Source: Candidatus Thorarchaeota archaeon
GTDB lineage: Archaea > Asgardarchaeota > Thorarchaeia > Thorarchaeales > Thorarchaeaceae
Reading direction: 5' to 3'
Length of the DNA stretch: 64,000 bases
Assembly: GCA_019057475.1 (NCBI GenBank)
Contig: DXJO01000010.1
Location: 352,001-416,000, forward strand
Every line of letters begins with the position of its first letter. Position 1 is the first letter of the stretch. The notes under the pieces were generated by a model, which had not been told where the DNA came from, searched no databases, and saw only the letters and a list, made by a program, of their open reading frames with translations. Both the position numbers and the translations under genes were made by a program. Below are positions 16,566 to 54,508 of the stretch, one piece after another.

Positions 16566-16569
16566 GGCG

Positions 16570-33154: not shown

Positions 33155-33754
33155 ATGCAGATTGACCTGCCGGCAGCACTGTTTGCAAATCTAGTGTTCT
33201 CTGTCAAGATTGCACCTGGGATACTGGCAATTGTGACAGTCGTCAGAGGACTGATACTCCTAAGTGGACAGAAGCGAGAGTTCGAGGACTGGACACGCAA
33301 CTCACTGATGTCAGCCCTATCGATCATATTCCTCCCCGGCACGCTAGCCTACATCGGGATAAGGTACACAGTAAGCAGAGCCTTTGGCATAGATGTGGAG
33401 AACATCGGCGGCTCGACAACCTATGGGGAGATCAACCTCTTCCTGAAGGTGGAACGTCCACCTCGGGTAGTGATTGTGCTATCTGCCCTGTACATGATAG
33501 TGGTGATGTCGGTGTTTGTTGCACTATCGCTGATTCTCCTGCCAGCGTTACTGTTCTTCCAGAACATGCCGGTTGTGCTGTTCTGTTGGTACGTGGCGAT
33601 AGGCGTTCTTTTCAACATCTCATTGAGGAGCGGGGATGTTTCACTTGTGGTCGCATCCCTACGCAGAAGGCCGCGTGCTGGTGCACTTGAGTTCATCGCT
33701 GTGATGGTGGCGCTTGTCCTTCTCTATACGCAGGTTGTGGGGGTGCTCGTTTGA
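33155..33754 (+). CDS. Polytopic membrane protein, probable inactive membrane zincin (M50-like) homologue
   Basis: About 5 TM helices; FLPGTLAYIGIR where the family has PGTxxHExxH; SLRSGD at the third-ligand position. Confidence 0.6.
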   Translation: MQIDLPAALFANLVFSVKIAPGILAIVTVVRGLILLSGQKREFEDWTRNSLMSALSIIFLPGTLAYIGIRYTVSRAFGIDVENIGGSTTYGEINLFLKVERPPRVVIVLSALYMIVVMSVFVALSLILLPALLFFQNMPVVLFCWYVAIGVLFNISLRSGDVSLVVASLRRRPRAGALEFIAVMVALVLLYTQVVGVLV

Positions 33755-33890
33755 GCAGCAATAAAAAAGTCCCTGGCTCGGATCACAGGTCTTGGTGTTT
33801 GCCCTATTTATTCCAAGACCTATCTCTGCACGGAATACCCCCTTCTTTCCGAGCCAAGGACACCTCTTTCGCTCAGGAGGTAGTTGGTAG

Positions 33891-39800: not shown

Positions 39801-41717
39801 TCGGAGATGGAGGTTGGCGAGTTCTTTGACGTTTCTGTGCTACTCTCTGACCACGCAGGCCAACCACTCATTGGCATGGATGTGATGCTATTACTGGAGG
39901 GTCCGGGAGGAGCGATAATCGGCCCCGTGGACCTCACAACGGATGAGAACGGACTAGTCTTCTGGAACGCTGTGCTTGACGATGCAGGTCCTTGGCAGCT
40001 CACCGCGCAGTTCGATGGTCTTGGAGTGTATCTAGCGGCTCAGGCAGTCCATGACATTGACGTGCGCGTAGCCACATTGGTTGAAGTGGTCTTGCTGGAC
40101 ACTGGCGATATAATTGCAGGAGTGAAGCCTGTATGCACAACTGTGCTTCTGACGGACTCTCAGGGGACTCCTCTTGAGGGACAGACGATACGCTACGAGG
40201 TCTACCACGAAGCATACGGACTGGTGGAGTCGGGTAGATTCATCCAGTTCGGTCACGATCCTGAGTCGTTCAACATCACTCTGGTCCGAGGGGGGAATCA
40301 TACCCTTGTGTTCGTGTTCGATGGAACGGAAACCTATCACTCCTCAACCGCAGCAGGGAATGTGAGGGTGCTTGGCACGAGTAAAATCTCCGTCACCGGA
40401 CCGACCAGTGTGGACAAGTCCAATGACTCAAAGCTAGTCGTTGCTGTGCTGGATGAACTGGATAGCAGGTTGGTCCTTGCTGAGCTTGATGTATCGATCA
40501 CTATGGACGGTCCTGATGGCGCAGTTAACCTAACCGCGTTGGCTGATTGGCAGGAGTTTGAGGTACACATTCCTCTGTGGGCGCTCCCCGTGGGAGCTTA
40601 CACGTTGGACATCACTGTGCTGGAATCCTCCATGCGACTGGGGGATGCCTTTCTCTACATGCTCAATATGACGGCAGAAACCACCCTGATGACAGAGGTA
40701 GAAGACCTCAGCGGTCTTGTTGGCCATTCACACTCTATCACTCTAATGCTGGCTGATACACTGGGGGTCGGCGTTGATGCGGTGGATGTCTGGGTCAGTC
40801 TCTTCGCTCCTGACGGCAGGGAGGTCTATGGGAGCCCACTGACCTCACAGACGAGGGTTGACAGTATTCATGGATTGATTGCCGTTTCGTGGAATCCGTC
40901 AATGACCGGCAATTATGCTCTGGAGGTCTGGTTCGAGGGTGACGATTTCAGGGGTGCCTCATGGTTCACAGTGATTGTGTTAACGCGCCGTGCCACGGTG
41001 TTGGAGATGAACTTGCCTGATGAGGTTACATTCCCCGCAGAACCGCAGCTTATTCTGAGTCTTAAGTCTGGGTTTGCCAAGCTAGCGGATGCGGATGTTC
41101 ACCTGTCTATTATGCTTGGGAATGAAACAATCTGGACAACTGTTCTGGAAACTGACTTCAGCGGGAGGGCGCTGATTAGCCTCGAAAGCCTTCTTGCGGG
41201 CGAATACGTGGCACTACTTTCCTATCTGGGGTCTGAAGTATATGCACCCATCAGTGCCTTCGCAGAGCTCAGGATATTGCCTAGCGTAGCCATTGCAATA
41301 GTCACTGTAACAGACGCCTACATTGGCTTCAATTGTTCCATCGTATTTGGGGTCGGAGTGCAGGGTGTGCCGGAGAACTGGCAGGGGACCATGCAAATCA
41401 CGATATCCGATTCTAATGGCTCTATCATGGCGGTCACAGAAACGATTTCGTCCGCCTTCGAGCTGAGTCTGCCCTTTGTGCCTAGACTGGATGGCGTACA
41501 TGGGCTGAACTTCACAATCAGCGGACTTCCAGTTATTACGAATTTTACGGATTGCTTCAGTTTCTCTGTGGTCGACGCTCCCCTTGCACTGAAATTAGAC
41601 CTTGGTTTAGCGCCTCTTCTCGGTGGAAGTGGGGCTATTGGTGTCATCGGCTTTCTTGTCCGCAGGAAATTAGGTGCTATGATGGACAACCTCCCAACAG
41701 AGTGGGAGTCGACTTGA
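33891..41717 (+). CDS. Giant (2608 aa) cell-surface protein: signal peptide, prenyltransferase/squalene-cyclase-like alpha-barrel repeats, long Ig-like array, C-terminal membrane anchor
   Basis: MKSRNR plus hydrophobic core; NGDGSF, NQLDSGGYG, QAQDSSGHY repeats; ~100-aa beta repeats with TNSTGHV/TNATGYV/TDENGLV; many NxS/T sequons; TM followed by RRK. Confidence 0.85.
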   Translation: MKSRNRLTLLVVFGLMLLSSMPLLATLHSSLEPPGGQTATRLENSFTRSADSGVLVQLGSYVVVSLPGAAIPDRGGEIESLLASFGVHTLLTTVSDTLSDPEVIESAQVVVLDASLGSEDGSSVPSEFVTLLLRYDRPIVMIGRAAWLLHRLRGLGSPSQTASINTLLQTSVGHEGAVFLSLPESLTLGASLTSETGLLLPNNRVQTERSRLEDLTGRGVSIQLAPLRHDAWPLDTFLFGPENPSLLTNDGRGLLLNTLAYATAIGESPTSQMLIDSQTADGELLAGGFHYQHESIVEFTYYAVHSMRSVLDATAWTQWRIDHQPKVQSILSTLYVETSSDACFMDSASGAKVNLKTTAWGLWLVEVMGLTSQFTASKLVANLSSGQGVSGDFDDDMTSAFFVTQALFEAGELSAINTGTLESWLRDCVVTGGDAPSNPEYWGGVSKNPSSIIPRNSYSAQYALTLEMLGESHHDPNKLTEWINEDSSNGDGSFNDVVGQSFETITGTSSALTTLSVLGTLSIPNRTAGLAWISFNQLDSGGYGMRDKALDIVAKSRETQRVALCLEELGETGGDIVDGVSDYFALVETDMGFETMEPIPTLMWSYWVTDIVRLSHGTINHEQAIDYLESFDEWRMYPFWSNMTTYAGAEYKSTQYRTKSVWSQFFGVGLAKSLSVQLSAGMVSGTSNYINQAQDSSGHYRNAPLSGSPHMQYSVAAVEALYLIDELDTIAYRTQLESALLSEYSSGQWSTDGWTLMPFAGQQSAIDQLCTRAAFRLGLIDATMASEIASNIEARIQYADLGALSHDVATLSLLNSSFSISVSSIDRSIVLGALGSSPFPDGWFNSTDLWQPALTAGVLEMISSLGLRTLLYDASGGSISAAVQSIPEVGQILSFDVVITSSLATHTVYVQAFGEWVRFDDIANTDTLEVPVPNDESDLGPANVSVMLWDWGASRAFDSVTTQVSGTLQGALNIETPTVFLNERVNGTVTWSLTSGADAGLTEIVIRLGDPPTYQEWTYNDVSPFHFSVPTTGFDTGMYNLTVTLNREYCDALLLREEVAVASPDPTYMLAPAALSGDVGQVLVIDWSLHFWENDSLIPGQLVSLEVRDDTESIVHTDTAISTTNLGHFHWTPSMRGVFTFKVVFERNGTLESSEASGLANVFEDTVLEWVDPGTINQYTTVSISVQLRTGTGEPLAGQSVHITITAPSSSILLDATFMTNSTGHVQVTFTLNENGIYSLKASFTGQGFLKATETTNNLTSWSDSTLTLGGVPVEGLTEESWNFWALLEDATPLPLEGESVIMRVILLPSTVVFEQTLSTNATGYVSVTWSTSTAGSYLVESEYEGTISRQVQFDSSPLDVRISVSLSIEISSDPEVSVSGWVRIYAEGSWGSPVVGLVVMLAIRDPADFVVFEETILTGGSGYANFSWVPSVRGLNTIAATSDRQAWFEASEVNTTTGVMEQPTIAIDIDELLAPANSFLTVSVIDSSLIGASGVTVRTIVTLNDATILDVTNVTAGDGIIILNLQLTEPGNLGIAVSMSERGWFLAQANSTAYSIHGLTQISVSAHPQPVDQGTTYPVKATLIGWDGQPMVGALVTISVSWTNGILVDSATLSTGVDGTCTLGHIFNSVGDFILNATYVGTGLNCTAMDTEVQRVRITPSLTLTHDPTSLLGDDVQVLCGVYDAFGQYVTGRTLTLSIMMDSILVFETQFISGSELSMVLWTPTERGLATITLTHTGDAFYLGNSTISTMSILEHVSGTLEIDPAPIDVFQTTTLTYTLGSTTSLLGIEIVFEVLGIDLVPVWAVSAFTNISGVVEVQYIADDMHGVLMAQAGPSEDQFLVGGDVQEQLVAITQCHTTTEFTPPPASVGSTVNITINAVDDLGNAIDGLSVQVTLFNPYGQPIKLGVWSNSITITLEDGVAYVEFTPEYSGLYTVYLDSSGSVSVHSFHQESFHTVHTPTFLDFLDTPSEMEVGEFFDVSVLLSDHAGQPLIGMDVMLLLEGPGGAIIGPVDLTTDENGLVFWNAVLDDAGPWQLTAQFDGLGVYLAAQAVHDIDVRVATLVEVVLLDTGDIIAGVKPVCTTVLLTDSQGTPLEGQTIRYEVYHEAYGLVESGRFIQFGHDPESFNITLVRGGNHTLVFVFDGTETYHSSTAAGNVRVLGTSKISVTGPTSVDKSNDSKLVVAVLDELDSRLVLAELDVSITMDGPDGAVNLTALADWQEFEVHIPLWALPVGAYTLDITVLESSMRLGDAFLYMLNMTAETTLMTEVEDLSGLVGHSHSITLMLADTLGVGVDAVDVWVSLFAPDGREVYGSPLTSQTRVDSIHGLIAVSWNPSMTGNYALEVWFEGDDFRGASWFTVIVLTRRATVLEMNLPDEVTFPAEPQLILSLKSGFAKLADADVHLSIMLGNETIWTTVLETDFSGRALISLESLLAGEYVALLSYLGSEVYAPISAFAELRILPSVAIAIVTVTDAYIGFNCSIVFGVGVQGVPENWQGTMQITISDSNGSIMAVTETISSAFELSLPFVPRLDGVHGLNFTISGLPVITNFTDCFSFSVVDAPLALKLDLGLAPLLGGSGAIGVIGFLVRRKLGAMMDNLPTEWEST

Positions 41718-41739
41718 TGAATGAGTGGCTGAGTGTTCT

Positions 41740-43731
41740 TCAGGACCGGCCTCGGATCTGAGAGAGCATTGCTGAAACGTCATCATCCCAGCTGCCGTCT
41801 TCATTCAGGAGTCGAGTGTAGATATTTTGCAAATAGCCTTGATATGCCGTGATTGGCATGCATCGCGCTTCAATTCCGAATTCTTGAGCCCTTGCAGGGA
41901 GAACGGCCACCAATTCGTGCAAAGCATCATCGGGTACGCGGGATATGAGGTAGCAGGACTTGCCGTTTCTTGAAACCCTTGCGGTAGTGGTTGGAGTCTG
42001 CGACAGGAATCCTCTTACCATTGCGCAGACATGACCGGGTTCACCATGAGCCATTATGAAAACCGAAGACAGACCTACTGGCGTGGGGCTATACTGCAGA
42101 CGCAGAATACCGGACTTCTTCAACTTGGCTAATGTGGAACTGAATTGTTCTTTCGTGATCCCGTGATACAGCCAAAACCTGTCTGCCTCAAGGTCGTCGA
42201 GGCTTATGCCCCGAGAAGTAAGGTCAAGGATTATAGCTTCATTCTTGCTCAATTTCCAGGGTGTTTTTCCTTGCCACCCTCCAAATTCGTTCCTGAGTCG
42301 TCGTATTGTTCGTGTTCCCTCAATTGACCTCATGGTCCTTGGAATGGATATTTTCCATTTCCTTTTGCCTTCATCGTACAATGCAAGATTGGTCGAGCTG
42401 CCGGACCATTCAATCTCCTCAATGGACGGTCTAGCCCTCATGACACGCTCCGCCGCTGACGGTGGCATGTACATCACTTGCAGGTTGGGTGGTCTGCCCA
42501 CATCATTACTCAAACGAGCGGAAAATGCCAGATGGTTGTGGGGCCACCTGTGAGCGGCTCCAACATAGATCAAGTGTCGAAGTCCTAGCGATTGCGGTTC
42601 AATGTAAGGAGTAAGATACAGGCCGTGCTTTGCAAGAGCCAAGCGTTCTCCCCATGCTCTTCTCGACCCCATAGCGGTTGCACTGGTCACCGGAAGTCCA
42701 ACAACCACATCGCCGTCTGCATTAAGGTCCATGGCATACTTGATAGCCTTTCCAGTCCAGTCAGGAAACTGCTCCCATATCTTCCGGAACGCCATCGACC
42801 ATGGCGTCTTCTCCTCCGATTCAGTTGGGGGACGCGTAAGAGGAGGGAGTCTGTCAGATGCTCCGAGCTTCATTAGCCGGACGTACGGAGGGGGTGGAAG
42901 TCCAGCCAGAAGACATAGCAGATGCCCGGCATACAAATTTGAAAACAGGCGGAGCGATTCCGTGTTGGTGAAGAACCTCACCGGGTCCTTGTCTGGAAGC
43001 CCCTTTCGAGTACTCCACGCGAGGAACGCCATTATTTCCTCACGTACTTCGCTCGGGAACTCCTTGGGGACGAGTTGACTGACCGTTTCCCTCATATTCC
43101 TGCCAATCATTAGTCCCTGAATCCGAACCTGATTAGCAAGTGATGCGATATCTTCCCACGTTGGAGGCGGCCCATCCAGTATTCCCAATGCTCTTGTTAC
43201 TGCTGATTCGGATTCTTTTGCGCTGATGCTTTGGTACATCTCATCGTCAGCATCAACGTCATCCATCATGGTAATGATGCTGGCTTCGTACTTGTGGATG
43301 GCGTGTGATTCATGAACATCTGCTGTGGCAGTGTTGACAATGGTTAGCCAGTAGCGTTCATTACTTTGCATCTTCTGGACAACAATCAACGCCTCCTTGC
43401 CATTCTTCGTCATCCTTGATGTCCAGCCTTGTGAGGGTGGAGGGTATAGATCGTCGGATGGCCGTTTCGCCTCTGCTGAGTAGAGTCGCATCGTCATGCT
43501 AATGGGTTTCAAGACGACTCTTGCCGCTTTCATGAGGGGGATGTTCTTCGAAACTCCGTTCTCATCCACAACGATTTCGTTACTGACCTCGTAGGCAGTA
43601 TCTCCAGAAGCCAGTTCGCCTGATTCCAGAGCGATGTGTGGGCCAGCTGCGTCCCAGATGAGTTGACCTAGGACACAGTCACCGGCAGGCGTGAACACCT
43701 TCACACTGATTCCATCGCGCTCTGGTGGCAT
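41740..43731 (-). CDS. Large putative transcription regulator with C-terminal wHTH plus Lrp/AsnC-like module (paralogue B)
   Basis: LSKNEAIILDL...GITKEQFSSTLAKLKKSGILRLQY; ends Y..NIYTRLLNEDGSWDD, like YRMTLLHRLHSEKGWRD of paralogue A. Confidence 0.55.
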   Translation of the reverse strand: MPPERDGISVKVFTPAGDCVLGQLIWDAAGPHIALESGELASGDTAYEVSNEIVVDENGVSKNIPLMKAARVVLKPISMTMRLYSAEAKRPSDDLYPPPSQGWTSRMTKNGKEALIVVQKMQSNERYWLTIVNTATADVHESHAIHKYEASIITMMDDVDADDEMYQSISAKESESAVTRALGILDGPPPTWEDIASLANQVRIQGLMIGRNMRETVSQLVPKEFPSEVREEIMAFLAWSTRKGLPDKDPVRFFTNTESLRLFSNLYAGHLLCLLAGLPPPPYVRLMKLGASDRLPPLTRPPTESEEKTPWSMAFRKIWEQFPDWTGKAIKYAMDLNADGDVVVGLPVTSATAMGSRRAWGERLALAKHGLYLTPYIEPQSLGLRHLIYVGAAHRWPHNHLAFSARLSNDVGRPPNLQVMYMPPSAAERVMRARPSIEEIEWSGSSTNLALYDEGKRKWKISIPRTMRSIEGTRTIRRLRNEFGGWQGKTPWKLSKNEAIILDLTSRGISLDDLEADRFWLYHGITKEQFSSTLAKLKKSGILRLQYSPTPVGLSSVFIMAHGEPGHVCAMVRGFLSQTPTTTARVSRNGKSCYLISRVPDDALHELVAVLPARAQEFGIEARCMPITAYQGYLQNIYTRLLNEDGSWDDDVSAMLSQIRGRS

Positions 43732-43763
43732 AAGGCTAGTTCCTTCTCATGATTGATTCCGAC

Positions 43764-44456
43764 CTATCTCTCTCCATAGATGCTATTCCATACCCTGTTG
43801 GTCTGCTCTTCGGTTGCCCCAATGGTCTTGAGGTCTTTCTTCGCAGCCTCGCCCCGTTTCATCTCCAGAACCAGTAGGAATAGGTCGTGTTGCACTTTCA
43901 GGCTGCTCTCTCTTGCGCTGTTGATCACTGTGGGAGTCTTCTCCCGCTCGAAGAACCGGGCGCGTGCCTCACGAGGCTTGATGGGCTCTATACTAACCAG
44001 TCTGAGGGCCTCGGCCTCTCCGTCAAGCTGGGATAACATAATCCACAGGTCGGCATCCTCCTTGTGAGCAAAGAGCCGAAGGTACGGTTCATCTGACTCA
44101 TCGTTCTCTGCAGTGGCAAGGAAGACCATGTCCATCTCGATGTCGATATCACCGTACATCCTTGTGTTCCTTGCCTTTTTGAAGACCTCTTTTGCGACCC
44201 TTGCCTGCTCCCTGCGATGGGACATCTTCACCATCCACTGCATGACAACTTCCACTTGCTGACCATTATCCACCCTGCTTTTCAGGAAGTGGACCCTTTT
44301 GCCATCATAGTCCAGCCGCCATGTGGTCGTGAACACTGTCTTGTTATCCTCTCCCAGACCGCCATCAACTTCAGTGATGGTTTTAAAAGTGTCTGCTTTG
44401 CTCGACTTGATCTCTGTGATAGAAGGTCTTACTACGGGCCTCGATTGGGTTGGCAT
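43764..44456 (-). CDS. Hypothetical protein, probably co-transcribed with paralogue B
   Basis: 230-aa ORF, 32 bp upstream of the next gene. Confidence 0.65.
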   Translation of the reverse strand: MPTQSRPVVRPSITEIKSSKADTFKTITEVDGGLGEDNKTVFTTTWRLDYDGKRVHFLKSRVDNGQQVEVVMQWMVKMSHRREQARVAKEVFKKARNTRMYGDIDIEMDMVFLATAENDESDEPYLRLFAHKEDADLWIMLSQLDGEAEALRLVSIEPIKPREARARFFEREKTPTVINSARESSLKVQHDLFLLVLEMKRGEAAKKDLKTIGATEEQTNRVWNSIYGER

Positions 44457-44566
44457 ACCCCATAATGTGCTTCCACTCCGTAAAAAGTAGCACGGTCACT
44501 CTGGTAGGATTGAGCAGGCTACAACTGGGAGAGAAGAGGAGGCTCAGATGATGGAGCTACTTGCTC

Positions 44567-45265
44567 CTACAAGATGTCTGGTGGGGGGCCAAGAGCTGCG
44601 CCACAGCTTGAGCAGAATTGGGCATTCGGAAGACGTAGGTGTTGGCCGCAGTGTGGGCAATAGTTCGTCCTCACCCGCCCAGATGTATGGGCTTGCTGGG
44701 ATGGAGGCTGTACGTACTCCGGCACTTGCTTCCTCGTCTTCGTGCGCTTTCCCACGTAGTGAAATACTACTGCAATCCCTACGATTACCAATGCGAGAAG
44801 GCCTAGACCTGCCATCCCTAACAATGTGCTAGATGGCGATGTGGGCGACCGAACCTCGACAGTCCCTTCAACATGTTTCCTAGTGAACCAGTTGTCATTG
44901 TAGAACACAACCCGCCACTCACCGTCTGAGGGCACACTGAAGCTGGTTGAGTAGCTTCCCACGTTCTCATGCAACACAGAAACTGTCACGCTATTCCCGT
45001 CACTCCAGAGGTCGTAAGTCTCACCATCACAAATGAAGAAGTCGATGTCTGACCCCGATGTAACCTCAAAGTCTACGTAGATCACATCACCCTCATCAAG
45101 CTGGGTCTGGTAGAAGCTATACCATGATCGTTGGTCTAGCCATATGTCAACATCTGCAAGAGGTCGCATATCGTTCTCTTGAGCTGGTGCCGCAGCTTGA
45201 ACTAGCACAGGCGCTATGGCGAAGACCACTAGAATGCATGCGATGGTTTCCCTTTTCACGGACAT
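44567..45265 (-). CDS. Single-pass membrane protein: signal peptide, GOLD-like beta-sandwich, TM, cytoplasmic Zn ribbon
   Basis: MSVKRETIACILVV...; FEVTSGSDIDFFI...GEWRVVFYN; TM; CPHCG...FCSSCG. Confidence 0.75.
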   Translation of the reverse strand: MSVKRETIACILVVFAIAPVLVQAAAPAQENDMRPLADVDIWLDQRSWYSFYQTQLDEGDVIYVDFEVTSGSDIDFFICDGETYDLWSDGNSVTVSVLHENVGSYSTSFSVPSDGEWRVVFYNDNWFTRKHVEGTVEVRSPTSPSSTLLGMAGLGLLALVIVGIAVVFHYVGKRTKTRKQVPEYVQPPSQQAHTSGRVRTNYCPHCGQHLRLPNAQFCSSCGAALGPPPDIL

Positions 45266-45395
45266 GTCCCACCTTAGTCCAAGAGAGTGTATCACCGGAA
45301 TAAGTAGCTTCTCTTGACAGACCCCCTAGCCATATGCCCGCCCTCAAGAACACCCACTAATGACCCAACCTGAAATCGATGCCTTTAGGTTGAAC

Positions 45396-45564
45396 AGGGT
45401 ACAGATTATCACGGTTCATGTATGCAAGAAGCCGACAGAAGGGCGGTGGGGGCCTATGGAGGCCTAAGAATTCTCAAGATGTATTCTAAACCCGCAATAG
45501 GACTCCTTGTACCTCTTTAGGTTCTATCCGCCCTTTATCAGTTTCAACCGACACTTCAAGTACT
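45396..45564 (+). promoter_or_regulatory. Conserved upstream element copy 4 (HerA/VirB4 ATPase operon)
   Basis: Box A AGGGTACAGATTATCACGGT (45396-45415), box B GTATTCTAAA (45481-45490), TATA-like TTCAAGTACT (45555-45564). Confidence 0.8.
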
Positions 45565-45822
45565 ATCTGCTAGACTCATATCTTCATGTGAGATTGACCT
45601 TATGACTTTCCTGTGCACCGACATAGAGCGACATTCTTTGGGAAACAGCCCTTGGCCTTCGGCATGTGAGAAACGGGTGATTCACTCGCGGCAATGCATG
45701 TTACCGCTCCATGAAAGAAACCATTCTAAGCCGCATCCTTCGGGAGGTGCTCCTGAACGCCATCTTCAGCAACCTCGAACCGCCTTCGACGGATTTCGGT
45801 TGTATGTCAGAGGGGATACTGA

Positions 45823-48800
45823 ATGATTTTCTCAATTATCAAACCACTTGTGAAGTACGCCATAATGTTGATTGTGGTCGTGTTCGGAGCAATGATCTGT
45901 GCCCTCATTGCCACGATTCCCATACGACTGAACCCTGCGATGCCCAGCCTGCTGCGAACTCTTGGCTTCTGGATCTCGGTATTGTGCTTTGGAGTGGGAA
46001 TGCTTGATTTGGTCTTCCGACGCAGCATGCAAGTCATGAAGCAGTCGGGCAAGATTGGAGTCGCAGTGCCTTTCGCGGTCCTCATCATAAGCATCCCGAT
46101 AACCCTAATCGAGGTTGCACTGAGGATTGTCGACCCCATGACACTGGCATGCATGGTGGTCATGGCTGTCGTATCCATCGTGTTCTTGTACGACGACATC
46201 GTAGCTCGAGTCAACAAGCTCCGAGGTATGACTTCAGGCGAATCAGGCACTTACTCGAAGCCAAGCATATCTTCGAGGTCACGTCCTCTGAGCGCAAACG
46301 CCCTTGCTAAGCAGTCAGACAACATTCTGGTGGGGGCATACGAGGTTGTAGAATGTCCTGTGGACTATATCGGTGGTGCTTCCACAGCGGACAGACGAGA
46401 GCTCTACGAACCATTCCACACACTTGTCCGGGGTATGGCAGGCAGCAAAGCACCGGTAGGTCTACGGTTAGAGCGCATTGAAGGTCGGACGCGGGAGTTC
46501 TTCCTCACAGTTGGTCTGACAGCAGCCGGCCTTACCCACAACATGGACCTGCTTGAGAGGATTCTTGCAGGGAATCTGCCAAGATTCAGGTTCAAGCGTC
46601 ATAACCGGTTCACTTGCCCAACTGCGAAGATTGGCATGACTGGCGCCTTGGCCCATCTCACCGGCGAGCCCCTGAGTGTTACAGACACACGGCAGAGTGT
46701 AGACCCCCTTACAGTCCTTGCAGAGTCGTTCCAGCATCATGAGGATGGCATCATGCAGGTCTTTGTGACTCCTGCCCCTCAAGGAGTTGTCAGGTCATTG
46801 ACACGAGCCTGGAAGGGTAGGCAGTACCAGAACAAGACGCAACAAGCAACGAAGACGGTCTCCAAGAAGAGCAGTGGGCTGTTCTCAGGCGGTTCTGAGG
46901 AGTCTGTAACGACGGTCAATGTGGCCGCTGCAAGTGAAGCTGACCGACTTGATCGAGAGGTCCAGCGATACAGAGCGGAGAACGCATGCGAGCTGGAGGC
47001 AATAGTCGGGTACTGGGATGACTCACGCAGAGACGCAACGCAGGAGGCTCACACCCTGATGGAAATTCTGAGGGGTGCAGTGGTCCCTGCAGATGTTGAA
47101 CGAGACCTGAAAATCACAACTAGCAGGAGGAGCGAGGACTTTCAGAGGCTCGTAGATGGAAAGCCTGTTGGTATCGCAACGCTTCTCCTACCAGAAGAGG
47201 CCTCAATGTTCCTTACACTGCCCCGTTGTGACCTAGGGATTGTCACTTCTAGACGTGAGTCCTTCTCTACAGCCACGACTCCTGTTCCCGCCCCACTGGA
47301 GGATGCGATAAGCCCCGGTGAAGGCTCTGTGACAGCATCTCAGAAATCCGGACGAAGCAGATACGAAATGAAACAGCCATATCCCAATAGGAGGGGCGGG
47401 GTTATTCTCGGGAATCCAATTCGGAAGAGCGGGGACGCCATAGCTGGCAAGTTCATATGGTTCCGCCATCAGCAGTTCGAGTCACACATTGGCATATACG
47501 GAAACACACGGTCCGGAAAGACAACAACCGCTCTCTCTGTTGCGGCTCAGGCGATCAACTGTGGAATACGGACATTGATGCTCATTCCTCGGAAGGGCGG
47601 AGACTGGGTAAGGCTGTCGTACATGAAGCCTGAGATCTGGGTCTTCACAGCAGGAAATCAAGGCGGCACACAGTTTCGCAAGAACATCTTCATACCTCCC
47701 ACTGGAGTACAGCTCACCAGGTGGATAGCGGAGCTAGTCAAGATATTCTCCGCGTGGCTCCCCAACGACCGCGTGATGAGTATGCACTTCGATGACATCT
47801 TTCATACAATATACCGCAACTGTGGCTGGAACCAAGATACGAACGTGCAGGGAAGACCCCCTCTGCTGAAGGACTTCTGGGATGCAGTGGAGGAGGTCTG
47901 CATCGACTTCCAGTACAGTGACGAGCTCAAGAGCAACTTCTACGGTGCACTGTACAGCCGTATGTCCAGCATGCTGCGGAACCACGGCATAGTGGACATG
48001 TACAATACAACTGAAGGCATCACTTGGGAGGAGCTGGTGGAGAATGATGTCATCATCATCATGGAGGACCTTCCAGAGGCTGACATGGCATTGCTCACGA
48101 GCATACTGCTGGCAGGGGTTCACCTCTACAAGATAGCACACCCGACCGAGATGATAACGAATCTCGTGGTGCTGGAAGAGGCCAGCTATCTGCTCAAGAG
48201 GTCTACTGGACATGATATCTATGGTCCTGACGTACACGAGGTGATGTCACGGGGCATTGTGGACATGTTCACCACGGGTGGTGGTAACGGTCTTGGCTGC
48301 ATGGTCGTTGAACAGCTGCCCGTGCGTCTTGTGAAGGATGTGTTCAAACTGATCGTCAATGTCATAGTCCATGCCATGGCCGATGAGGATGAGAGAAGGC
48401 TGGTCGGCGGTCACATAGGCGTTGATGAGAAGCAGTTGGACCACCTCAGACAGATGCGGAGGGGTGAGACCGTTGTTCATCTGGAGGGGCAGGGCGTGCC
48501 ACAGAGTGTCAAGATCATGCCCTTGGATATCTTTCTTGAAGCCCCCCTTCCGAAGAAGCCATTGACCAACGAGATGATTCGCGATGTGATGAGACCTATT
48601 TACGAGAAGCATCCGAACCTCGCATCAGTTGAGGAGCTGCCCAGTGAGATCATTGCGCGCATCGAACGAGCGAAACCCAGTGCAGAGGAGTCAACAAAGG
48701 AAGTACAGAGAGAACGCGTGCACCTGTCCATCGAGCGGATACTGGACCCTGATGCCAAGACGCGCCTCAGCCATCTTGTTGAGAACCATAGGTTCTCGAA

Positions 48801-49020
48801 ACGTTACTACGAGTCACTGAGAAAGGCTGCCAGTAGTGATTCTACCTCTTTTGTAGACCTCATGGTCACTGCGGTGAAGAAGGCAAGTCCTGAAGGTGCT
48901 GATCTGTCAACCCTGGCAGAGTGGTTCATCCCTCATGTCAGGGACGTACTCGGTGCTCCTGACGACGGAACACTGTTCAGTGACCTTACTGCGCGTGTGA
49001 GAGAGAAGGTCACCGCCTAA
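45823..49020 (+). CDS. Membrane-anchored HerA/VirB4/VirD4-superfamily ATPase (CedB-like architecture)
   Basis: 4 N-terminal TM helices; HIGIYGNTRSGKTTT; LVVLEEASYLL; GLGCMVVEQLP; LRQMRRGETVV. Confidence 0.8.
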   Translation: MIFSIIKPLVKYAIMLIVVVFGAMICALIATIPIRLNPAMPSLLRTLGFWISVLCFGVGMLDLVFRRSMQVMKQSGKIGVAVPFAVLIISIPITLIEVALRIVDPMTLACMVVMAVVSIVFLYDDIVARVNKLRGMTSGESGTYSKPSISSRSRPLSANALAKQSDNILVGAYEVVECPVDYIGGASTADRRELYEPFHTLVRGMAGSKAPVGLRLERIEGRTREFFLTVGLTAAGLTHNMDLLERILAGNLPRFRFKRHNRFTCPTAKIGMTGALAHLTGEPLSVTDTRQSVDPLTVLAESFQHHEDGIMQVFVTPAPQGVVRSLTRAWKGRQYQNKTQQATKTVSKKSSGLFSGGSEESVTTVNVAAASEADRLDREVQRYRAENACELEAIVGYWDDSRRDATQEAHTLMEILRGAVVPADVERDLKITTSRRSEDFQRLVDGKPVGIATLLLPEEASMFLTLPRCDLGIVTSRRESFSTATTPVPAPLEDAISPGEGSVTASQKSGRSRYEMKQPYPNRRGGVILGNPIRKSGDAIAGKFIWFRHQQFESHIGIYGNTRSGKTTTALSVAAQAINCGIRTLMLIPRKGGDWVRLSYMKPEIWVFTAGNQGGTQFRKNIFIPPTGVQLTRWIAELVKIFSAWLPNDRVMSMHFDDIFHTIYRNCGWNQDTNVQGRPPLLKDFWDAVEEVCIDFQYSDELKSNFYGALYSRMSSMLRNHGIVDMYNTTEGITWEELVENDVIIIMEDLPEADMALLTSILLAGVHLYKIAHPTEMITNLVVLEEASYLLKRSTGHDIYGPDVHEVMSRGIVDMFTTGGGNGLGCMVVEQLPVRLVKDVFKLIVNVIVHAMADEDERRLVGGHIGVDEKQLDHLRQMRRGETVVHLEGQGVPQSVKIMPLDIFLEAPLPKKPLTNEMIRDVMRPIYEKHPNLASVEELPSEIIARIERAKPSAEESTKEVQRERVHLSIERILDPDAKTRLSHLVENHRFSKRYYESLRKAASSDSTSFVDLMVTAVKKASPEGADLSTLAEWFIPHVRDVLGAPDDGTLFSDLTARVREKVTA

Positions 49021-49034
49021 CAGAGGGACTGACC

Positions 49035-52000
49035 TTGAGAAGAGGGGACTACGAGGGGGGGAATGAGGGTAGGGAGCGGAGGTCACATCACGAAGAGGGA
49101 GAGAGCAGCGAACACCATGAGCGGAGCGAGTCAAACAACTTGATGGATGAGATAGAGAGGGATCTGGAGTCAGGAGAGAAACGAACAACCGATGCAGACG
49201 AGCTAATGGATGATATTGTACGAGAACTTGAGGGTAGATCAGAGATAGAGGAACTAATGGACGAGATAGAGAGAGACCTTGAGGGAGAGCAAGAAGCCAG
49301 GGAAACAACCGAAGCGGAGCAGCTAATGGATGAGGTCAAAAAGGAGCTAGAAGACGACAGAGAAACTGTAGAGAGTGTCGAAGACAGACTTGACGAGTTC
49401 GAGGAGGATATCCTTGAGAACTTCGAGAAATACGGCATCGATGGCGACGAGGTGATGGAGCGCTGGCGTGAGAGATTCGTAGAAGATGTGGAGGAAGAGC
49501 TTGAGAATGATTCTGCGTCCGACCAACCCGATGAGTCAGCGGAAGTATCTGATGATGCAGCTGACTCTGAGATGACTGAGGCCGCTGAGTCCTACTCGCA
49601 TTCGGAGTCTGGCGATGGCACAGTACAGATATTGAAGAGTGAGGGCCATTCAGAGACTACAGAATCCGTAGGCGAATCTGAGGAACACAAGGCAGAGATG
49701 GAGCCTCAGGCAGAATCTGACTCAAGTGTGGAAGGCGAGAAGGACCGCGCGGTCGAAGAGAGCAACCAGAAGGAAGGATTGGAATCTCCCGAAACTGAGA
49801 AACAGATAGCGCAAGAGACTGAGTCTGAAACATCTGAGAATAGCGCGCAACATGAATTGAAACGCGACTCGAAAGAGAGCATTCCGGAAACGAGCGAGGA
49901 CGCGCAAGCAAGGCAGCAGACATCGGAAACGGTTTCAGAGTCATCTGAGGAGAAAGCAGAAGCCGCAGAACAGAAGGAAGAGCAAGCCGAGGGTATCGAG
50001 TCACACAGCGTACGAGTGGAATGCGAAGAACTGGCTGAAGAAGAGGTTGAGGACACTCAGACTGAAGGCCATCTCAACGAGTCTGAAGAAGAAGGCGAGG
50101 TAATACAGGACTCTGACTCCGAGAATATGCAAGAATGGAAGGAAGATGGCGAGAGCGAGGAACTAGCAGACTCCGAACATCTCGAAGAACCAGATTCGAC
50201 GCAAAGCACCTTGGAATCCTATCATGAAGTTTTGGAGGAGAATATCTCACCTGACGCAGAAGAGCTTGATGAGGACGAAGAAGTGGACGAGCGGGTGGTA
50301 TCTGACGACGAGCGGCTGACGGGAATGCTTGACTCACCCTATCCACATGTCTACGTCGATGAAACTGGGTTCTTTGCAGAAACTGAGGAGCAGAGATGGA
50401 GGCGCAAGCTGATTGAGTTGTATAATGAGCTTCCTGAGGAGATGAAGCAGCTATACCGCGAGCTTGTAAAGGCCACGCTGGAGTCAGAGGAAGGGCTTGA
50501 GAAGCTTCTTGACACGTTTCCTGAGCTTAGGGATCAGGAGGAGTATGAGGAGAAGCATGAGGACGCATTAGAGTATGTCAGGTTCAGGCAGAAACTTCAG
50601 GAACTTGAGCTTCTTGGAACTCCGGAAGAAACTACTGCAGAGGAACTCGCTCTCGAGCTGGACATAGACCAAGAAACTGTCGAGAAGTGGTTGAATGATG
50701 ATTACGACTCGTTTCCAAAGCTCATTCAACAGGTCTGGAACCAAGAGATAGAACGACGGTGGGGGACTGTACTCCGAGCCATCGCAAATCGTGATGTGCC
50801 ATATGACATGAGTGAGGTCAACGAGATCCTAAAACGGTTTCCAGAGCTGAAGAGGAAGCGGTGCTTCGGATGGCACTATGACGAAGTCAAGGCGTGGACT
50901 GAGGTCATGGCAGCAAAGAAACATGGCAAGATTACCACGCTCATTATTCAAGGTAAGGAACGGTTCAAGGTAGATGAAGTCGAGGAGCTGGCTAAGAGGT
51001 TTAGTTTCACTGTTGACAAGGTGGTTCGTTGGCTCAGAGATGAGAGCCGCCCCCGGCTAGTTGACGTATTGACTGAAAAAAAACTGCGGTTGCGGTCAAA
51101 GCAGAATGGGACGATACAAGAACCAACGATTGTTCAGGAAGCCAGCACATTCGAGGATTGGATTCAAAGGGAGCTTGGGGATTTCGCGGGGTTGCTGAAT
51201 GACAAGCAAATCAAGAGAATACATGAAGTCCACGCGATTTCTTCCTTTGTAGATCCAAAGTATGAGAATTCGCAATACAGTGCGGAGTCGGATTCGACCA
51301 TTGATGAGTCAAGGAGGAACATTCTCCGAAGCAAAGAAGACCTGGATGAAGCGATTGAGGCGAACCCCGGCATCCGAGAGTTTAAGGATTTCGCGAAGAC
51401 GTACCACGATGCGTTGGCATACATCAGGCTTCGAATCATGCTCGAATCTGAAGCCACAGGTGCATTGACGCAGAATGAGATTGCGGAGATACTTGGCACA
51501 CGGCAGACTCGTGTGAGCAAGTGGATGCTTGGACAAGCAACTCCTAGAATCATACGCTCAATAGAAGGTCATCCAAGATTTGAAACAGATTTTGCCCCAG
51601 CTATCGAGTCGTTCAGTGATGTGATAGGGCTTATCAAGCACATTCCACATATCATTGATTCAAAGCGCTTCTCGGAACGGCTCCTTCAGAGCTGGCTATA
51701 CCACGAGTTCAAACAGCAAGACAAGAATGGGAATCTCGCAGAGTACTCGAACAAGGAGTTATCGCGTATTTTCGGAGTATCCAAGAGAGCTATCTGGTGC
51801 TGGAGAACATCGAAAACAAGACCTATCTTGGATAACATGTTATCGACGCAAGAGCGAGCTCGCCGAAAACATGAGGCAAGCTTGCAGTCAAAGGCGAGAG
51901 AACTTCGCATTGACCCCTCACTTGTTTACGAATCATTCAGAGGTCTTAAGAAGAGTAAGGACCGCACGCTCCAATCTATTGCTGAATCAATCCGGGAACT

Positions 52001-53408
52001 CATCGAGAGGGCTGAGCCATCAACTCGCGTCTTCTTTGCTGAGCTTCGTCCATACCATCAATCGGGTCCCAACTGGCTGAATGCGATTGCTGATGACATA
52101 GCGGCGCAAGAAGGGAAAATTGAGATTTTGCTAAACGAGTCATTGAGAGAAGTAATAGGGCCTGACGAACGACTTCAGATTGGCGTAGTTGGTCGCACTC
52201 TCTATGTTTGGTGCCATAGAACAAATCAATTAAACTGGGCTAACCTCTATTCAGACGAGCTCTTCTACTTCGATATGAAATACAAGAGAGAACTAGTCAA
52301 GCGTATGCGTTCAGCTCTTAGCATTTCTGGCAATGTTAGGCTTGCCTCACTAGTGGAAAGAATATGCAATCATTACTCAGATGGCAGGCTGCGGCGCAAC
52401 CCCACGTCTGACTTCTTGGTAGTAGATATACCCTACATCAGTGGTGAAGCATTGCATTTCTTAATCGATACTATTGGTGTGAGTCTGGACAGCTTGCCTG
52501 TTAGGCAGATAGGCACCAATAGGAACGACGGTCAGATCATCAACCCCAAGTTTCCACGAAACATTGGCCAAATCATCGCACAGCTCTATGCAATAGTCGT
52601 AAGTGATGGCCACATAGACAACCAGTGCTCGGTCTACTACAGAGAAAAGCGACCGGCAAGGCTTGAGATAGTAAGACGATTGTTCTGTCAGCTTGGAGAT
52701 GTCGCCTACAGATACCTAGAAGAAATCAATGGGACTGGGGGTTTGTATTTTCCGCCAGTAATCGGTCGAATGCTTGCAAAGGTTGGGATGCCAATTGGGA
52801 ACAAAACGAACATCAATATGGGATTGCCGTCGTTCATACTGAAGAATCCCAAATCCTATGGTCGTGACCATCTACGAGAGGTCATCCCAGAAGACGGCTC
52901 TTTCCAATTCTCAAGACCATGTTTCTCTATCAGTCGTGCAGCACTTCTCCACATCCCAGACAGTAGTCCAATGATTACTCCTGAAGAAATTGAATTAATT
53001 CACAGTCATGGATCTCCCCTAACTCTGAAATTCCCTGATAACCACAGAGATGCCATTTCCATAACTTTTCGCTGTCTTTATGACCTTTCTAAAACGAATA
53101 AAAACGCGAACAAACTGTATCAACGGATTCTCCAGACAAGGAATCGCCTACTCGATGATGAAGGTCGAATCTGCAAGGCAAATGGTATTGACACAAAGAT
53201 ACGCCCAAGTCGAGTGTATTTGCATAAGGATACAGGCAAAATAACAGTAATTTGGCGTTTGAGAACAAGAACACTTCAAGATGCAATGAGATGGGCTATT
53301 CTGGCTCCCCCTCATGATGTATATAAGCGCTCATTGATTGAAAGATTCATAAATGCACGACAGGACATCCGCGACCAAGTGCAAGGTCAACTCAGAGAAG
53401 AAGGATAG
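49035..53408 (+). CDS. 1457-aa protein: acidic disordered N-terminus, four HTH-containing repeats, C-terminal LAGLIDADG-like endonuclease domain
   Basis: HTH e.g. TQNEIAEILGTRQTRVSKW...P; LAGLIDADG-like LYAIVVSDGHI and HLREVIPEDGSF with intervening G.K....LPSFI. Confidence 0.7.
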   Translation: MRRGDYEGGNEGRERRSHHEEGESSEHHERSESNNLMDEIERDLESGEKRTTDADELMDDIVRELEGRSEIEELMDEIERDLEGEQEARETTEAEQLMDEVKKELEDDRETVESVEDRLDEFEEDILENFEKYGIDGDEVMERWRERFVEDVEEELENDSASDQPDESAEVSDDAADSEMTEAAESYSHSESGDGTVQILKSEGHSETTESVGESEEHKAEMEPQAESDSSVEGEKDRAVEESNQKEGLESPETEKQIAQETESETSENSAQHELKRDSKESIPETSEDAQARQQTSETVSESSEEKAEAAEQKEEQAEGIESHSVRVECEELAEEEVEDTQTEGHLNESEEEGEVIQDSDSENMQEWKEDGESEELADSEHLEEPDSTQSTLESYHEVLEENISPDAEELDEDEEVDERVVSDDERLTGMLDSPYPHVYVDETGFFAETEEQRWRRKLIELYNELPEEMKQLYRELVKATLESEEGLEKLLDTFPELRDQEEYEEKHEDALEYVRFRQKLQELELLGTPEETTAEELALELDIDQETVEKWLNDDYDSFPKLIQQVWNQEIERRWGTVLRAIANRDVPYDMSEVNEILKRFPELKRKRCFGWHYDEVKAWTEVMAAKKHGKITTLIIQGKERFKVDEVEELAKRFSFTVDKVVRWLRDESRPRLVDVLTEKKLRLRSKQNGTIQEPTIVQEASTFEDWIQRELGDFAGLLNDKQIKRIHEVHAISSFVDPKYENSQYSAESDSTIDESRRNILRSKEDLDEAIEANPGIREFKDFAKTYHDALAYIRLRIMLESEATGALTQNEIAEILGTRQTRVSKWMLGQATPRIIRSIEGHPRFETDFAPAIESFSDVIGLIKHIPHIIDSKRFSERLLQSWLYHEFKQQDKNGNLAEYSNKELSRIFGVSKRAIWCWRTSKTRPILDNMLSTQERARRKHEASLQSKARELRIDPSLVYESFRGLKKSKDRTLQSIAESIRELIERAEPSTRVFFAELRPYHQSGPNWLNAIADDIAAQEGKIEILLNESLREVIGPDERLQIGVVGRTLYVWCHRTNQLNWANLYSDELFYFDMKYKRELVKRMRSALSISGNVRLASLVERICNHYSDGRLRRNPTSDFLVVDIPYISGEALHFLIDTIGVSLDSLPVRQIGTNRNDGQIINPKFPRNIGQIIAQLYAIVVSDGHIDNQCSVYYREKRPARLEIVRRLFCQLGDVAYRYLEEINGTGGLYFPPVIGRMLAKVGMPIGNKTNINMGLPSFILKNPKSYGRDHLREVIPEDGSFQFSRPCFSISRAALLHIPDSSPMITPEEIELIHSHGSPLTLKFPDNHRDAISITFRCLYDLSKTNKNANKLYQRILQTRNRLLDDEGRICKANGIDTKIRPSRVYLHKDTGKITVIWRLRTRTLQDAMRWAILAPPHDVYKRSLIERFINARQDIRDQVQGQLREEG
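49140..49352 (+). repeat. Four imperfect coding repeats LMD(E/D)(I/V)xx(D/E)LE
   Basis: LMDEIERDLE, LMDDIVRELE, LMDEIERDLE, LMDEVKKELE; visible in DNA as (C/T)T(A/G)ATGGAYGA. Confidence 0.75.
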
Positions 53409-53450
53409 TGTTTGATAGGTTGATAAGTTATCCTCTTGATGATTTCCAAT

Positions 53451-54508
53451 GCACGTTCATCTTTCCGCCGAAGCCATCCATGCGCCTTATCACTGACACA
53501 TTCAAATTCTGTTCGCAGAGCATGCCGCTTTGGAATACGATCTCCATATCCGGTTATCATATCCGAGAGGCCGGCTCGACGGCCGTGCAGGAAATCGCTT
53601 TCACGCTAGCCAACGGGGTTGCCTACGTTGACGCCGCTGTCAAGGTCGGTCTCGACGTAGATTCATTCGCATCTCGATTATCTTTCTTCTTTGGTTCGCA
53701 TAGTGATTTCTTTGAAGAGATTGCCAAGTTTCGGGCAGCTCGAAGGCTTTGGGCTAGGATAATGCGCAATAGGTTCGGCGCAAAGGACGACAACTCTTGC
53801 AGAATGAGGTTTCATACTCAAACAGCTGGTTGTACGTTGACCGCGCAACAGCCGGATAACAACGTTGTGCGTGTGACTCTTCAAGCCCTGCAGGGCGTGT
53901 TGGGTGGAACACAGTCGCGCCACACGAACTCTAGGGATGAAGCATTGTCGCTCCCGACGGAGCAGTCAGTTCAAATCGCACTTAGGACTCAGCAGATAAT
54001 CGCTTACGAGACCGGAGTGGGTGACACAATCGACCCGCTAGCCGGCTCCTACTTCATTGAACACTTGACTGATGAAGTAGAGAAGAGAGCAATGGAGTAC
54101 ATTACGAAAATTGATGATATGGGCGGCGCCCCTGCTGCAATCGAGAAGGGATTCATCCAAAGAGAAATCAACGACAGTGCCTATAAGTTCCAACAGGCCG
54201 TTGATAATAACACAAGAGTCGTAGTGGGACTCAATAGGTTCACCGTGGAGGAGGAGCAACAGTTCGACTATCTGAGAGTGGACCCAGCAGCAGAAGCAGA
54301 GCAGATTCGGCGATTGCAAGAGATGAAAGAGGGACGTGACCAAGCGGCTGCTGAAAAGACGCTTGAAGCGATGAGGTCTGCTGCAGAAAGTAATAGTAAC
54401 CTAATGCCCCTGATTCTTGATGCTGCCAAGGCTTACGCGACTCTAGGCGAGATGTGTGGAGTGTTGCGTGAGGTCTTCGGTGAATACAGAGCGCCAGACA
54501 TATTGTAG
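53451..54508 (+). pseudogene. 5'-truncated second methylmalonyl-CoA mutase substrate-binding subunit
   Basis: Homology starts abruptly at TFIFPPKPSMR (equivalent to [11 protein letters not shown], about residue 205 of the intact copy); also QSRHTN for the conserved QSLHTN. Confidence 0.85.

Follow-up and report, generated by a model that had tools for sequence, protein, structure and literature searches.

A free-standing LAGLIDADG protein with helix-turn-helix arrays, encoded behind a VirB4/HerA-type ATPase at the edge of a 45.3-kb insertion in a Thorarchaeota mutase gene

The window analyzed here is a stretch of 64,000 nucleotides from a Candidatus Thorarchaeota archaeon (GenBank assembly GCA_019057475.1, contig DXJO01000010.1, positions 352,001 to 416,000 of the forward strand). 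Our subject is a single open reading frame (ORF) on its plus strand, which lies directly behind the gene of a membrane-anchored ATPase and at the right end of a large insertion in a gene for methylmalonyl-CoA mutase. Its product consists of 1,457 amino acids (aa) and combines an acidic region, an array of helix-turn-helix (HTH) units and a LAGLIDADG domain, arranged as follows.

49035..53408, plus strand: the ORF (1,457 aa), a mosaic of an ATPase-associated N-terminal module (N-module) and an HTH plus LAGLIDADG C-terminal module (C-module)
49035..50480, plus strand: acidic low-complexity N-terminal region, aa 1-482, recognized by composition and repeats
50481..50759, plus strand: HTH unit 1, aa 483-575 (hmmsearch E 3.5e-14)
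50808..51098, plus strand: HTH unit 2, aa 592-688 (hmmsearch E 6.8e-12), with a recurrent breakpoint at ~51075-51090, at the end of the unit
51327..51572, plus strand: HTH unit 3, aa 765-846 (hmmsearch E 7.8e-17), with Pfam HTH_3 at aa 811-839
51603..51878, plus strand: HTH unit 4, aa 857-948 (hmmsearch E 3.6e-29), helical in the structure model and first element of the ~600-aa family core
52272..52508, plus strand: Cro/C1 (XRE)-like HTH domain, aa 1080-1158, before the nuclease domain (weak VIA matches)
52554..53384, plus strand: two-lobed LAGLIDADG nuclease domain, aa 1174-1450 (AlphaFold2, Foldseek, VIA)
51085..53405, plus strand: exchangeable C-terminal cassette comprising HTH units 3 and 4, linker domains and the LAGLIDADG domain (locus comparison)

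Several of these traits had been proposed in an original prediction made from the sequence alone, namely a very acidic region of about 430 aa, four HTH units at about 50490-51830, two LAGLIDADG-like motifs at about 52584 and 52869, a more AT-rich 3' part and the lack of any intein or intron context, and all of them were borne out. Asp and Glu account for 26-44% of each 50-aa block across residues 1 to ~550, and four short LMDEIERDLE-type repeats are located within the acidic region (49143-49352). The four HTH units, each of ~90 aa, were recovered over DNA 50481-51878 by hmmsearch with a hidden Markov model built from the HTH unit of homologues. The first LAGLIDADG motif reads LYAIVVSDGHI (52584-52616) and ends with the acid D1191, the second reads HLREVIPEDGSF (52869-52904) and carries the acid D1287, and the motif cores are ..VVSDGH.. 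and ..IPEDGS.., respectively. The G+C fraction drops from ~0.51-0.55 upstream to 0.42-0.47 over 51400-53500. Searches of Pfam, NCBIfam, PHROGs, PADLOC and, by sequence, the PDB assigned the ORF to no family, weak HTH matches aside. In Pfam there was no match to a Hint/intein family, and no zinc-finger match was obtained. Similarly, Pfam, NCBIfam and PHROGs gave no match to HUH, Rep or any other relaxase family, the structure model spanning aa 857-1457 only. An intein- or intron-encoded endonuclease was ruled out, since the HTH units and the acidic region stand upstream and there is no extein, no intron context and no RNA gene; no tRNA genes were found in the window.

The fold of the C-terminal part was examined with an AlphaFold2 model of aa 857-1457, based on an alignment with 34 homologues, which reached a mean pLDDT of 92.7 and a pTM of 0.87. 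All top matches of the model in a Foldseek search of the PDB were LAGLIDADG proteins, with E down to 1e-5. Comparison by VIA, which is independent of Foldseek, gave Z scores of 18.1 for the endonuclease domain of the TliVMA intein (7qsu), 17.2 for PI-PfuI (1dq3), 17.1 for I-Tsp061I (2dch), 15.9 for WhiA (a bacterial transcription factor of LAGLIDADG fold that has lost the catalytic acids) and 15.2 for I-DmoI (2vs8; rmsd of 2.0 over 161 residues). The matches span model residues 318-594, i.e. aa 1174-1450, and the intein structures align with the model through their endonuclease domains only. Model residues 224-302 gave weak VIA matches to MqsA, SinR, ImmR and ComR (Z ~4). The two-lobed fold of the LAGLIDADG superfamily, a pseudo-dimer saddle of two alpha-beta-beta-alpha-beta-beta-alpha lobes, which the original prediction had suspected from the motifs, is thereby confirmed by the model and by both structure searches. 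Furthermore, the residues at catalytic positions are conserved: D1191 is an Asp in 195/196 aligned relatives, D1287 is an Asp or Glu in 195/195, and K1257 is a Lys or Arg in 194/196. Judged by motif position, without coordinate superposition, D1191 and D1287 are putatively the metal-binding residues of active enzymes. The C-terminal domain looks like an intact LAGLIDADG nuclease. Enzymes of this superfamily cleave both strands site-specifically and leave 4-nt 3' overhangs, and cleavage activity is predicted for the ORF product.

The ORF belongs to a family that has so far escaped annotation. A HMMER scan of 1.84 billion representative sequences retrieved 359 clusters at 50% identity, 106 of which scored below 1e-30. 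The family core corresponds to aa ~857-1457 (~600 aa), and many members, with lengths of 610-680 aa, consist of the core alone. They are labelled 'hypothetical protein' in the source databases, and no family in Pfam, NCBIfam, PHROGs or PADLOC covers the core. Members were found in 68/301 genomes of the phylum, with 45/76 genomes in the taxonomic family of the window and 15/19 in a second one. Several matches are often present in one genome (up to 5 were counted), many are fragmentary or contain in-frame stops, and at least 34 of the ~150 matches listed begin less than 1 kb from a contig start. The family is thus large, unannotated, multi-copy, patchy and often degraded. When the single ORF protein was used to search for related loci, only the orthologue in genome G075 was recovered. 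Our literature search found no paper on an HTH plus LAGLIDADG family or on an operon of an ATPase and such a nuclease.

In addition, the locus was compared among five genomes of the genus. The C-terminal cassette was found only in the genome of the window (G000) and in G075. Genome G221 shares 45333-51075 at 91% DNA identity, a stretch that covers the promoter, the ATPase gene, the acidic region and HTH units 1 and 2, and past the breakpoint its ORF has other HTH units and a LAGLIDADG domain of the canonical Pfam type (LAGLIDADG_3). G206 shares 50865-51084 only, followed by a third core that is 27% identical. G075 shares the locus from 49326 onward, its ATPase being 38% identical, and also possesses a second gene in which the N-module is joined at the same breakpoint to a cassette of the G221 type. 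In G075 the ATPase is exchanged along with the first ~97 residues of the ORF, and a contact between the two proteins would be predicted in that stretch. Three cassettes in the genus diverge at one point, ~51085, at the end of HTH unit 2, so that the exchangeable C-terminus put forward as an option in the original prediction is observed directly. The second nuclease gene of G075 (L120:36-3983, C34) lies 1.1 kb to the right of the chimeric mutase gene described below, at the left end of the insertion. In its product, which is 56% identical to the G221 protein, the N-module (from aa ~271) is combined with six HTH units and a LAGLIDADG domain of canonical type. The ATPase orthologue of G221 (L055:15051-18248) is 92% identical and has one interrupting TAG, which may represent decay or a sequencing error.

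The surroundings of the ORF revealed that the mutase gene has been split, as can be seen from the following features.

8172..53452, no strand: 45.3-kb insertion relative to congeners G221, G182, G206 and G301, which starts with a replacement mutase end and ends with the ATPase-nuclease operon
7554..9227, plus strand: chimeric full-length mutase gene, codons 1 to ~207 native, foreign replacement 3' part from ~8171
53409..53452, plus strand: 44-bp spacer from the ORF stop to the right junction (junction comparison)
53408..54508, plus strand: displaced native mutase 3' part, MCM-B, Pfam profile positions 172-512, with a GTG start that runs into the TAG stop of the ORF

Downstream of the ORF follows a methylmalonyl-CoA mutase gene whose product lacks Pfam profile positions 1-171. 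Each of the four congeners has a full-length, uninterrupted mutase that is 92% identical to this displaced fragment, and the G221 locus aligns to the window as two pieces, 6666-8767 and 53468-56005. Residues 1-207 of the left mutase are 97-100% identical to the native protein, and the remainder shows ~57% aa identity. The displaced fragment sets in at the codon where the left copy departs from the native sequence; in most 30-column blocks its identity to the native protein is 87-100%, with 75% in the first block at the junction. The insertion point is located at codon ~207, with junctions at ~8171 and ~53450-53453, the right one 42-45 bp past the ORF stop, and 350 mutase codons have been replaced by the foreign end. 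The missing 5' part of the fragment was not found anywhere in the whole genome, a loss that is explained by the chimeric left copy. Taken together, the split mutase, the chimeric left copy, the displaced right fragment and the intact genes of the congeners establish that the 45.3 kb are an insertion relative to the congeners. Both junctions, with the same chimera, also occur in G075, and the mutase gene is therefore polymorphic in the genus, carrying the insertion in G000 and G075 and being uninterrupted in G221, G182, G206 and G301. A divergent gene end borne by the element, with the native end beyond the nuclease gene, is the geometry of the yeast WHO elements discussed below.

The sequence around the junctions was also inspected. 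Seven codons after the insertion point are variable between conserved flanks (8172-8192; 53453-53476; L111 ~1498-1520), and read FIHGPKE in G221 and G182, YIF(P/S)PKP in G301 and G206, FIFPPKP in the displaced fragment and WVFGPNP in the replacement. These codons may reflect escape from a target site, and five sequences prove nothing in this respect. Between G000 and G075 the displaced fragment has a dN/dS of 0.12 at a dS of 0.35, and the stop of the ORF and the start of the fragment overlap as TAGTG at 53406. The dS of the core is 0.12 vs 0.2-0.5 for its neighbours. Regarding cargo, the island encodes a ThiF-like and a GH3-like enzyme, two RadA/Rad51 paralogues, XPD-like and DEAD helicases, a KaiC-like ATPase, FEN1, a histidine kinase and a 2,608-aa Ig-repeat protein. 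None of the island ORFs of at least 120 aa matched an integrase or transposase family, and no att-like long direct repeats bounding the region were found. The island is a mosaic between the two genomes, in that the regulators are 74% identical and the ATPase has the low identity already mentioned. Two further observations concern the same region. G075 has, relative to the window, a 3-kb insertion between a lyase and an MFS gene (L034:8306-11333), which encodes an 861-aa multi-PAS histidine kinase. The minus strand of the window at 43764-44456 encodes a 230-aa protein without a Pfam family, of which four further copies or pieces (75-78% identity) are found on other contigs of G000 (C4, C36, C20 and C22); several of these copies are near a contig start, and they may constitute an unrecognised repeated element.

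A comparable arrangement was found at other conserved genes. The 3' end of the SAHH gene is occupied by family members in G103, G191 and G131 and by a 112-aa relic in G116; in G242, G197 and others the site is unoccupied. In G227 and G081 the last 60-78 SAHH codons are repeated downstream, and G131 and G227 differ at this site essentially by the nuclease gene alone. Presence and absence at one site, together with decaying copies, is the pattern of a homing element, and the family displays it at SAHH. The SAHH 3' end is a hot spot for solo members (L037, L041, L046, L101, L102, L103), and the SAHH match ends at codon ~357-368 in ~11 genomes. Family members were likewise found beside a displaced 5' part of uvrB in G110, beside displaced 3' ends of a NiFe-hydrogenase/49-kDa-like gene in G052 and G122 and, in G221, beside the 3' end of a neighbouring gene. 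Partial duplicates of these genes (uvrB, hydrogenase-like, other neighbour) stand beside solo members in four genomes other than that of the window (L036:9400-9773 and 13942-16068; L040:17329-17406; L043:13605-13712; L053:11273-11368). Under one and the same filter, terminal gene fragments were present at 12/31 family loci, not all of which are independent, vs 6/120 random 20-kb windows of this genome.

The partner of the ORF in its operon is defined by two features upstream.

45396..45560, plus strand: multi-box promoter-like element upstream of the ATPase gene (repeat family D6)
45823..49020, plus strand: membrane-anchored VirB4/HerA-type P-loop ATPase of 1,065 aa, first gene of the operon

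The AlphaFold2 model of the ATPase (pLDDT 80.5) shows four transmembrane helices at the N-terminus (aa 1-134), followed by a middle domain and, at the C-terminus, the ATPase domain. Its top Foldseek matches were TrwK/VirB4 over the full length (E 9.5e-15), HerA (E 4e-13) and the C domain of DndH, and the VirB4 C-terminal domain superposes on the model with a TM of 0.74. A protein-language-model search (Atlas) led to DUF87/HerA and TrwB_AAD_bind clusters, with CedB among them. Residues G560, T562, G565, K566, T567, E785 and E786 are invariant, and the protein is placed in the VirB4/HerA clade of P-loop ATPases by its fold and its Walker A and B motifs. Weak NCBIfam and PADLOC matches pointed to CedD, TraD, HerA and mad8. 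The CedD model (NF053655) gave 30.1 bits, around Walker A only, vs a cut-off of 600, and on this ground the ATPase is not a CedD orthologue. As for the promoter-like element, boxes at equal spacing are common to 45396-45560 and to 32937-33100, upstream of a giant surface-protein operon (AGGGTACAGATT.T.ACGGT.CA, GTATTCTAA, CAATA, CTATCC, AAGTA).

The original prediction had placed the ORF behind a translocase ATPase and regarded the linkage as decisive, and it proved to be widespread. In at least 25 loci, nearly all of them in other genomes, a homologous ATPase gene stands immediately before a family member in the same orientation, with gaps mostly of -150 to +330 bp, a count that is a lower bound since two ATPase candidates were scored per genome. 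As the coupling is conserved, it probably matters. One of these loci is a second pair in G000 itself (C21:65197-70449), with ~25% identity to the pair of the window. In a tree of 52 cores the ATPase-linked and the solo members are interspersed, with 9 changes, and this excludes the linked members as a single clade. In genus g27 the family is present in 11/15 genomes and the ATPase in 0/15. In ten linked loci the nuclease gene is followed immediately by a conserved third gene, of ~200 aa (L060:7098-7691, L061:11699-12301, L048:8625-9218 and seven more); its product has no Pfam family and resembles two winged-helix-like halves. This gene was not found in the genome of the window, where the mutase fragment occupies its place, and 3'-end pieces of it are scattered near two operons (L044, L067). 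Reading the operon as a polymorphic toxin, with the ATPase as exporter, the nuclease as tail and an immunity gene, was set aside, because the ~200-aa gene is invariant with the cassette and absent here, and because LAGLIDADG enzymes are site-specific. Furthermore, the ATPase-nuclease operon holds one chromosomal site across several genera. The site separates a ZIP transporter gene from the adjacent gene; it is unoccupied in G000 (C34:19402-20069, 667 bp), whereas six genomes of five genera have the operon there and the congener G182 has a solo nuclease gene.

Homing endonucleases survive inside genes by hiding in introns or inteins. Carrying a spare gene end would be a third way, for which we know of experimental proof only in the WHO elements of yeasts. 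In these elements of Torulaspora and Lachancea, which are relatives of HO, homing by gene-end replacement at FBA1 has been shown by experiment, and allele-specific cleavage of the uninterrupted target has been demonstrated for WHO6 (Coughlan et al., 2020; PMC7282813). The C-module (aa ~690-1457) is best read as a complete representative of a new family of LAGLIDADG homing endonucleases in archaea, which are free-standing and recognise DNA through HTH arrays. On balance, and by no means firmly, we favor the view that the C-module homes by gene-end replacement in the manner of WHO, and that in this ORF it has been fused to a partner module of a DNA-motor ATPase. Family members would insert into conserved genes and bring along a spare copy of the interrupted end, by which the host gene would be left whole and the old end pushed aside. 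At this locus, the nuclease would cut an uninterrupted mutase allele near codon ~207, repair of the double-strand break would employ the flanking mutase halves as homology arms and copy the insertion in, and the divergent replacement end would both keep the gene whole and destroy the target site. The N-module, i.e. the acidic region with HTH units 1 and 2, travels with the upstream ATPase and probably tethers the nuclease to the DNA motor, which would couple cutting to DNA translocation at the membrane. For the ATPase, candidate roles are that of a motor to which DNA ends are delivered, that of a route to incoming DNA, and that of a resident transfer system parasitised by the nuclease.

The claim of homing is stronger for the family than for this copy having moved all 45 kb. 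Between the two alternatives left by the original prediction, a domesticated nuclease or DNA-binding protein that starts transfer or recombination and a selfish cargo, it is the selfish one that fits better and the domesticated one that loses ground, given that the acids are kept, unlike in WhiA, that the family is multi-copy, patchy and decaying, and that members sit at the junctions of replaced or displaced gene ends. It is also conceivable, and in our estimation decidedly unlikely, that the whole 45-kb insertion is a self-spreading 'homing island'. The tethered nuclease would then cut the empty mutase allele in the DNA of a partner cell after contact, thereby bringing about gene conversion of the cargo, which comprises recombination enzymes of the element itself (RadA paralogues, XPD-like and DEAD helicases, FEN1), the giant adhesin-like surface protein and the regulators. 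A selfish element would in this way supply mating-like exchange together with homing in the archaeal lineage closest to eukaryotes.

A number of observations weigh against homing by gene-end replacement at this locus. That the operon keeps one conserved site across genera would suit a resident system better than a recent invasion. The dN/dS of the displaced mutase fragment, which is without its first ~207 codons, shows purifying selection, and this is not what one would expect of a relic. In size, the insertion exceeds by far the homing elements known to us, and this together with its mosaic nature indicates that the island may have grown by later recombination and not moved as a whole. Plain homologous recombination with foreign DNA could also have made the left junction, which falls within sequence that the mutase lineages have in common. 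Finally, the contrast in terminal gene fragments is tempered by the partial dependence among the family loci counted.

The alternative that survives best, and which we regard as unlikely, is a role in DNA transfer between cells. The domesticated protein, a site-specific nuclease or DNA binder, would mark or nick the point where transfer begins and pass the DNA on to the VirB4/HerA ATPase for export or import, much as a relaxase does for a coupling ATPase, and its position at the mutase junction would be incidental. The two-gene operon in at least 25 loci, with genes overlapping or nearly touching, agrees with such an initiator of transfer, as do the VirB4 likeness of the ATPase over its full length and its architecture of transmembrane segment, N-terminal domain and HerA-like ATPase, which is that of CedD. 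The promoter boxes common to the operon and the giant surface-protein operon, the RadA paralogues, helicases and FEN1 of the island, and the single operon site across genera point in the same direction. However, many members have no ATPase nearby, genus g27 being the clearest case, and linked and solo members are interspersed on the tree. Moreover, the three-gene operon showed neither a VirB6/CedA-like channel nor a pilin, and the replaced and displaced gene ends beside family members would be left unexplained.

A defence system appears to us very unlikely. Here the membrane HerA-type ATPase would act with a nuclease effector, as in Sir2-HerA, DUF4297-HerA and TdpAB, and the variable cassettes would result from an arms race with viruses. 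Pairs of HerA-family ATPases and nucleases do dominate the structural matches, and the patchy distribution, the several copies per genome, the shuffling of modules, the location in a variable region and the weak PADLOC hits of the ATPase (mad8, HerA) are in line with this. The nuclease, however, has no PADLOC match, and its neighbours are housekeeping rather than defence genes. LAGLIDADG enzymes generally recognise long specific sites, which suits homing better than broad defence, and the duplicated gene ends again find no explanation.

We attach only a very slim likelihood to an insertion in which the nuclease took no part, where foreign DNA with a distant mutase would have recombined in a conserved patch, the right join would be illegitimate and the nuclease gene would owe its place at the edge to chance. 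The left junction within a stretch identical between the mutase lineages and the mosaic of the island between G000 and G075 would fit such an event, but the position at the edge beside displaced gene parts recurs for family members at no fewer than four other genes, and such fragments are ~8x commoner at family loci than in random windows. A non-catalytic, WhiA-like DNA-binding regulator on a LAGLIDADG scaffold, possibly acting on the shared multi-box promoters of the island, is extremely improbable despite the structural match to WhiA and the many HTH units, because both catalytic-position acids are kept in essentially all ~196 relatives and are lost in WhiA, and because copy number and decay of the family do not suit a regulator. 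Nor does the protein belong to WhiA itself: its acids are conserved, its HTH units are N-terminal, and Pfam gave no match to LAGLIDADG_WhiA.

With homing by gene-end replacement as the favored explanation, a large unannotated family of Asgard archaea appears to use the strategy of the spare gene end with a recognition module of its own, the HTH array. If this is true, the strategy would be old and widespread, and it would be a source of the chimeric and fragmented housekeeping genes in these genomes. The recurrent ATPase operon and the 45-kb cargo of recombination genes suggest that one prokaryotic element could encode both homing and intercellular DNA transfer. In addition, the long modular recognition arrays may be of interest as scaffolds for programmable nucleases. 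New are the HTH-array architecture, the fusion to an ATPase-associated module, the swapping of cassettes at one constant joint and, for the insertion, its size and content; the mechanism has a eukaryotic precedent.

Among known LAGLIDADG proteins, the ORF shares with I-DmoI, I-Tsp061I, PI-PfuI and the TliVMA intein endonuclease the two-lobed fold (Z 15-18) and both motif-terminal acids. It differs from these archaeal intron and intein endonucleases in being free-standing, in its sequence identity of only 13-18%, and in having ~330 extra conserved residues in front (HTH unit, linker domains, XRE-like HTH) along with variable N-terminal extensions. With WhiA it has in common a LAGLIDADG scaffold combined with HTH domains; WhiA, however, is bacterial, lacks the catalytic acids and has its HTH at the C-terminus, whereas the acids of the ORF are conserved and its HTH units are N-terminal. 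In fungal mitochondria, mobile endonuclease ORFs of the Allomyces atp6 type have likewise entered at the end of a gene and brought a foreign version of this end with them, but they belong to another nuclease family, are organellar and small, and have no ATPase partner.

Concerning the operon, HerA-NurA, Sir2-HerA, DUF4297-HerA and TdpAB similarly have a hexameric-type ATPase of the HerA/VirB4 clade encoded next to a nuclease. Among the Ced ATPases compared, CedB and CedD, the latter consists of a transmembrane segment, an N-terminal domain and a HerA-like ATPase (PMC11868833), the same domain architecture as the partner ATPase. Thermus TdtA (PMC5365140) was grouped with the comparators of the HerA/VirB4 clade. 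Unlike in these HerA-nuclease and Ced systems, the partner here is a LAGLIDADG protein with HTH arrays, and the operon has no CedA-like channel gene.

The closest parallel is provided by the WHO elements, with differences in origin, size and partner. Membership of the WHO/HO family by descent was rejected, as neither a Hint nor a zinc-finger match exists: WHO proteins are derived from inteins, with Hint remnants and a C-terminal zinc finger, and the ORF has HTH arrays in their place. WHO units measure a few kb, whereas here 45 kb of cargo lie between the new gene end and the nuclease gene, with 350 codons replaced, and the nuclease is fused to a module associated with a membrane ATPase. WHO elements are eukaryotic and nuclear and the ORF is archaeal, and cleavage is experimentally established for WHO6 and predicted for the ORF. 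In both cases, a free-standing gene of the LAGLIDADG type stands beside a conserved metabolic gene, a divergent 3' end has been brought in with the old 3' end remaining downstream, neither an intron nor protein splicing is involved, and an extra DNA-binding module is attached to the nuclease.

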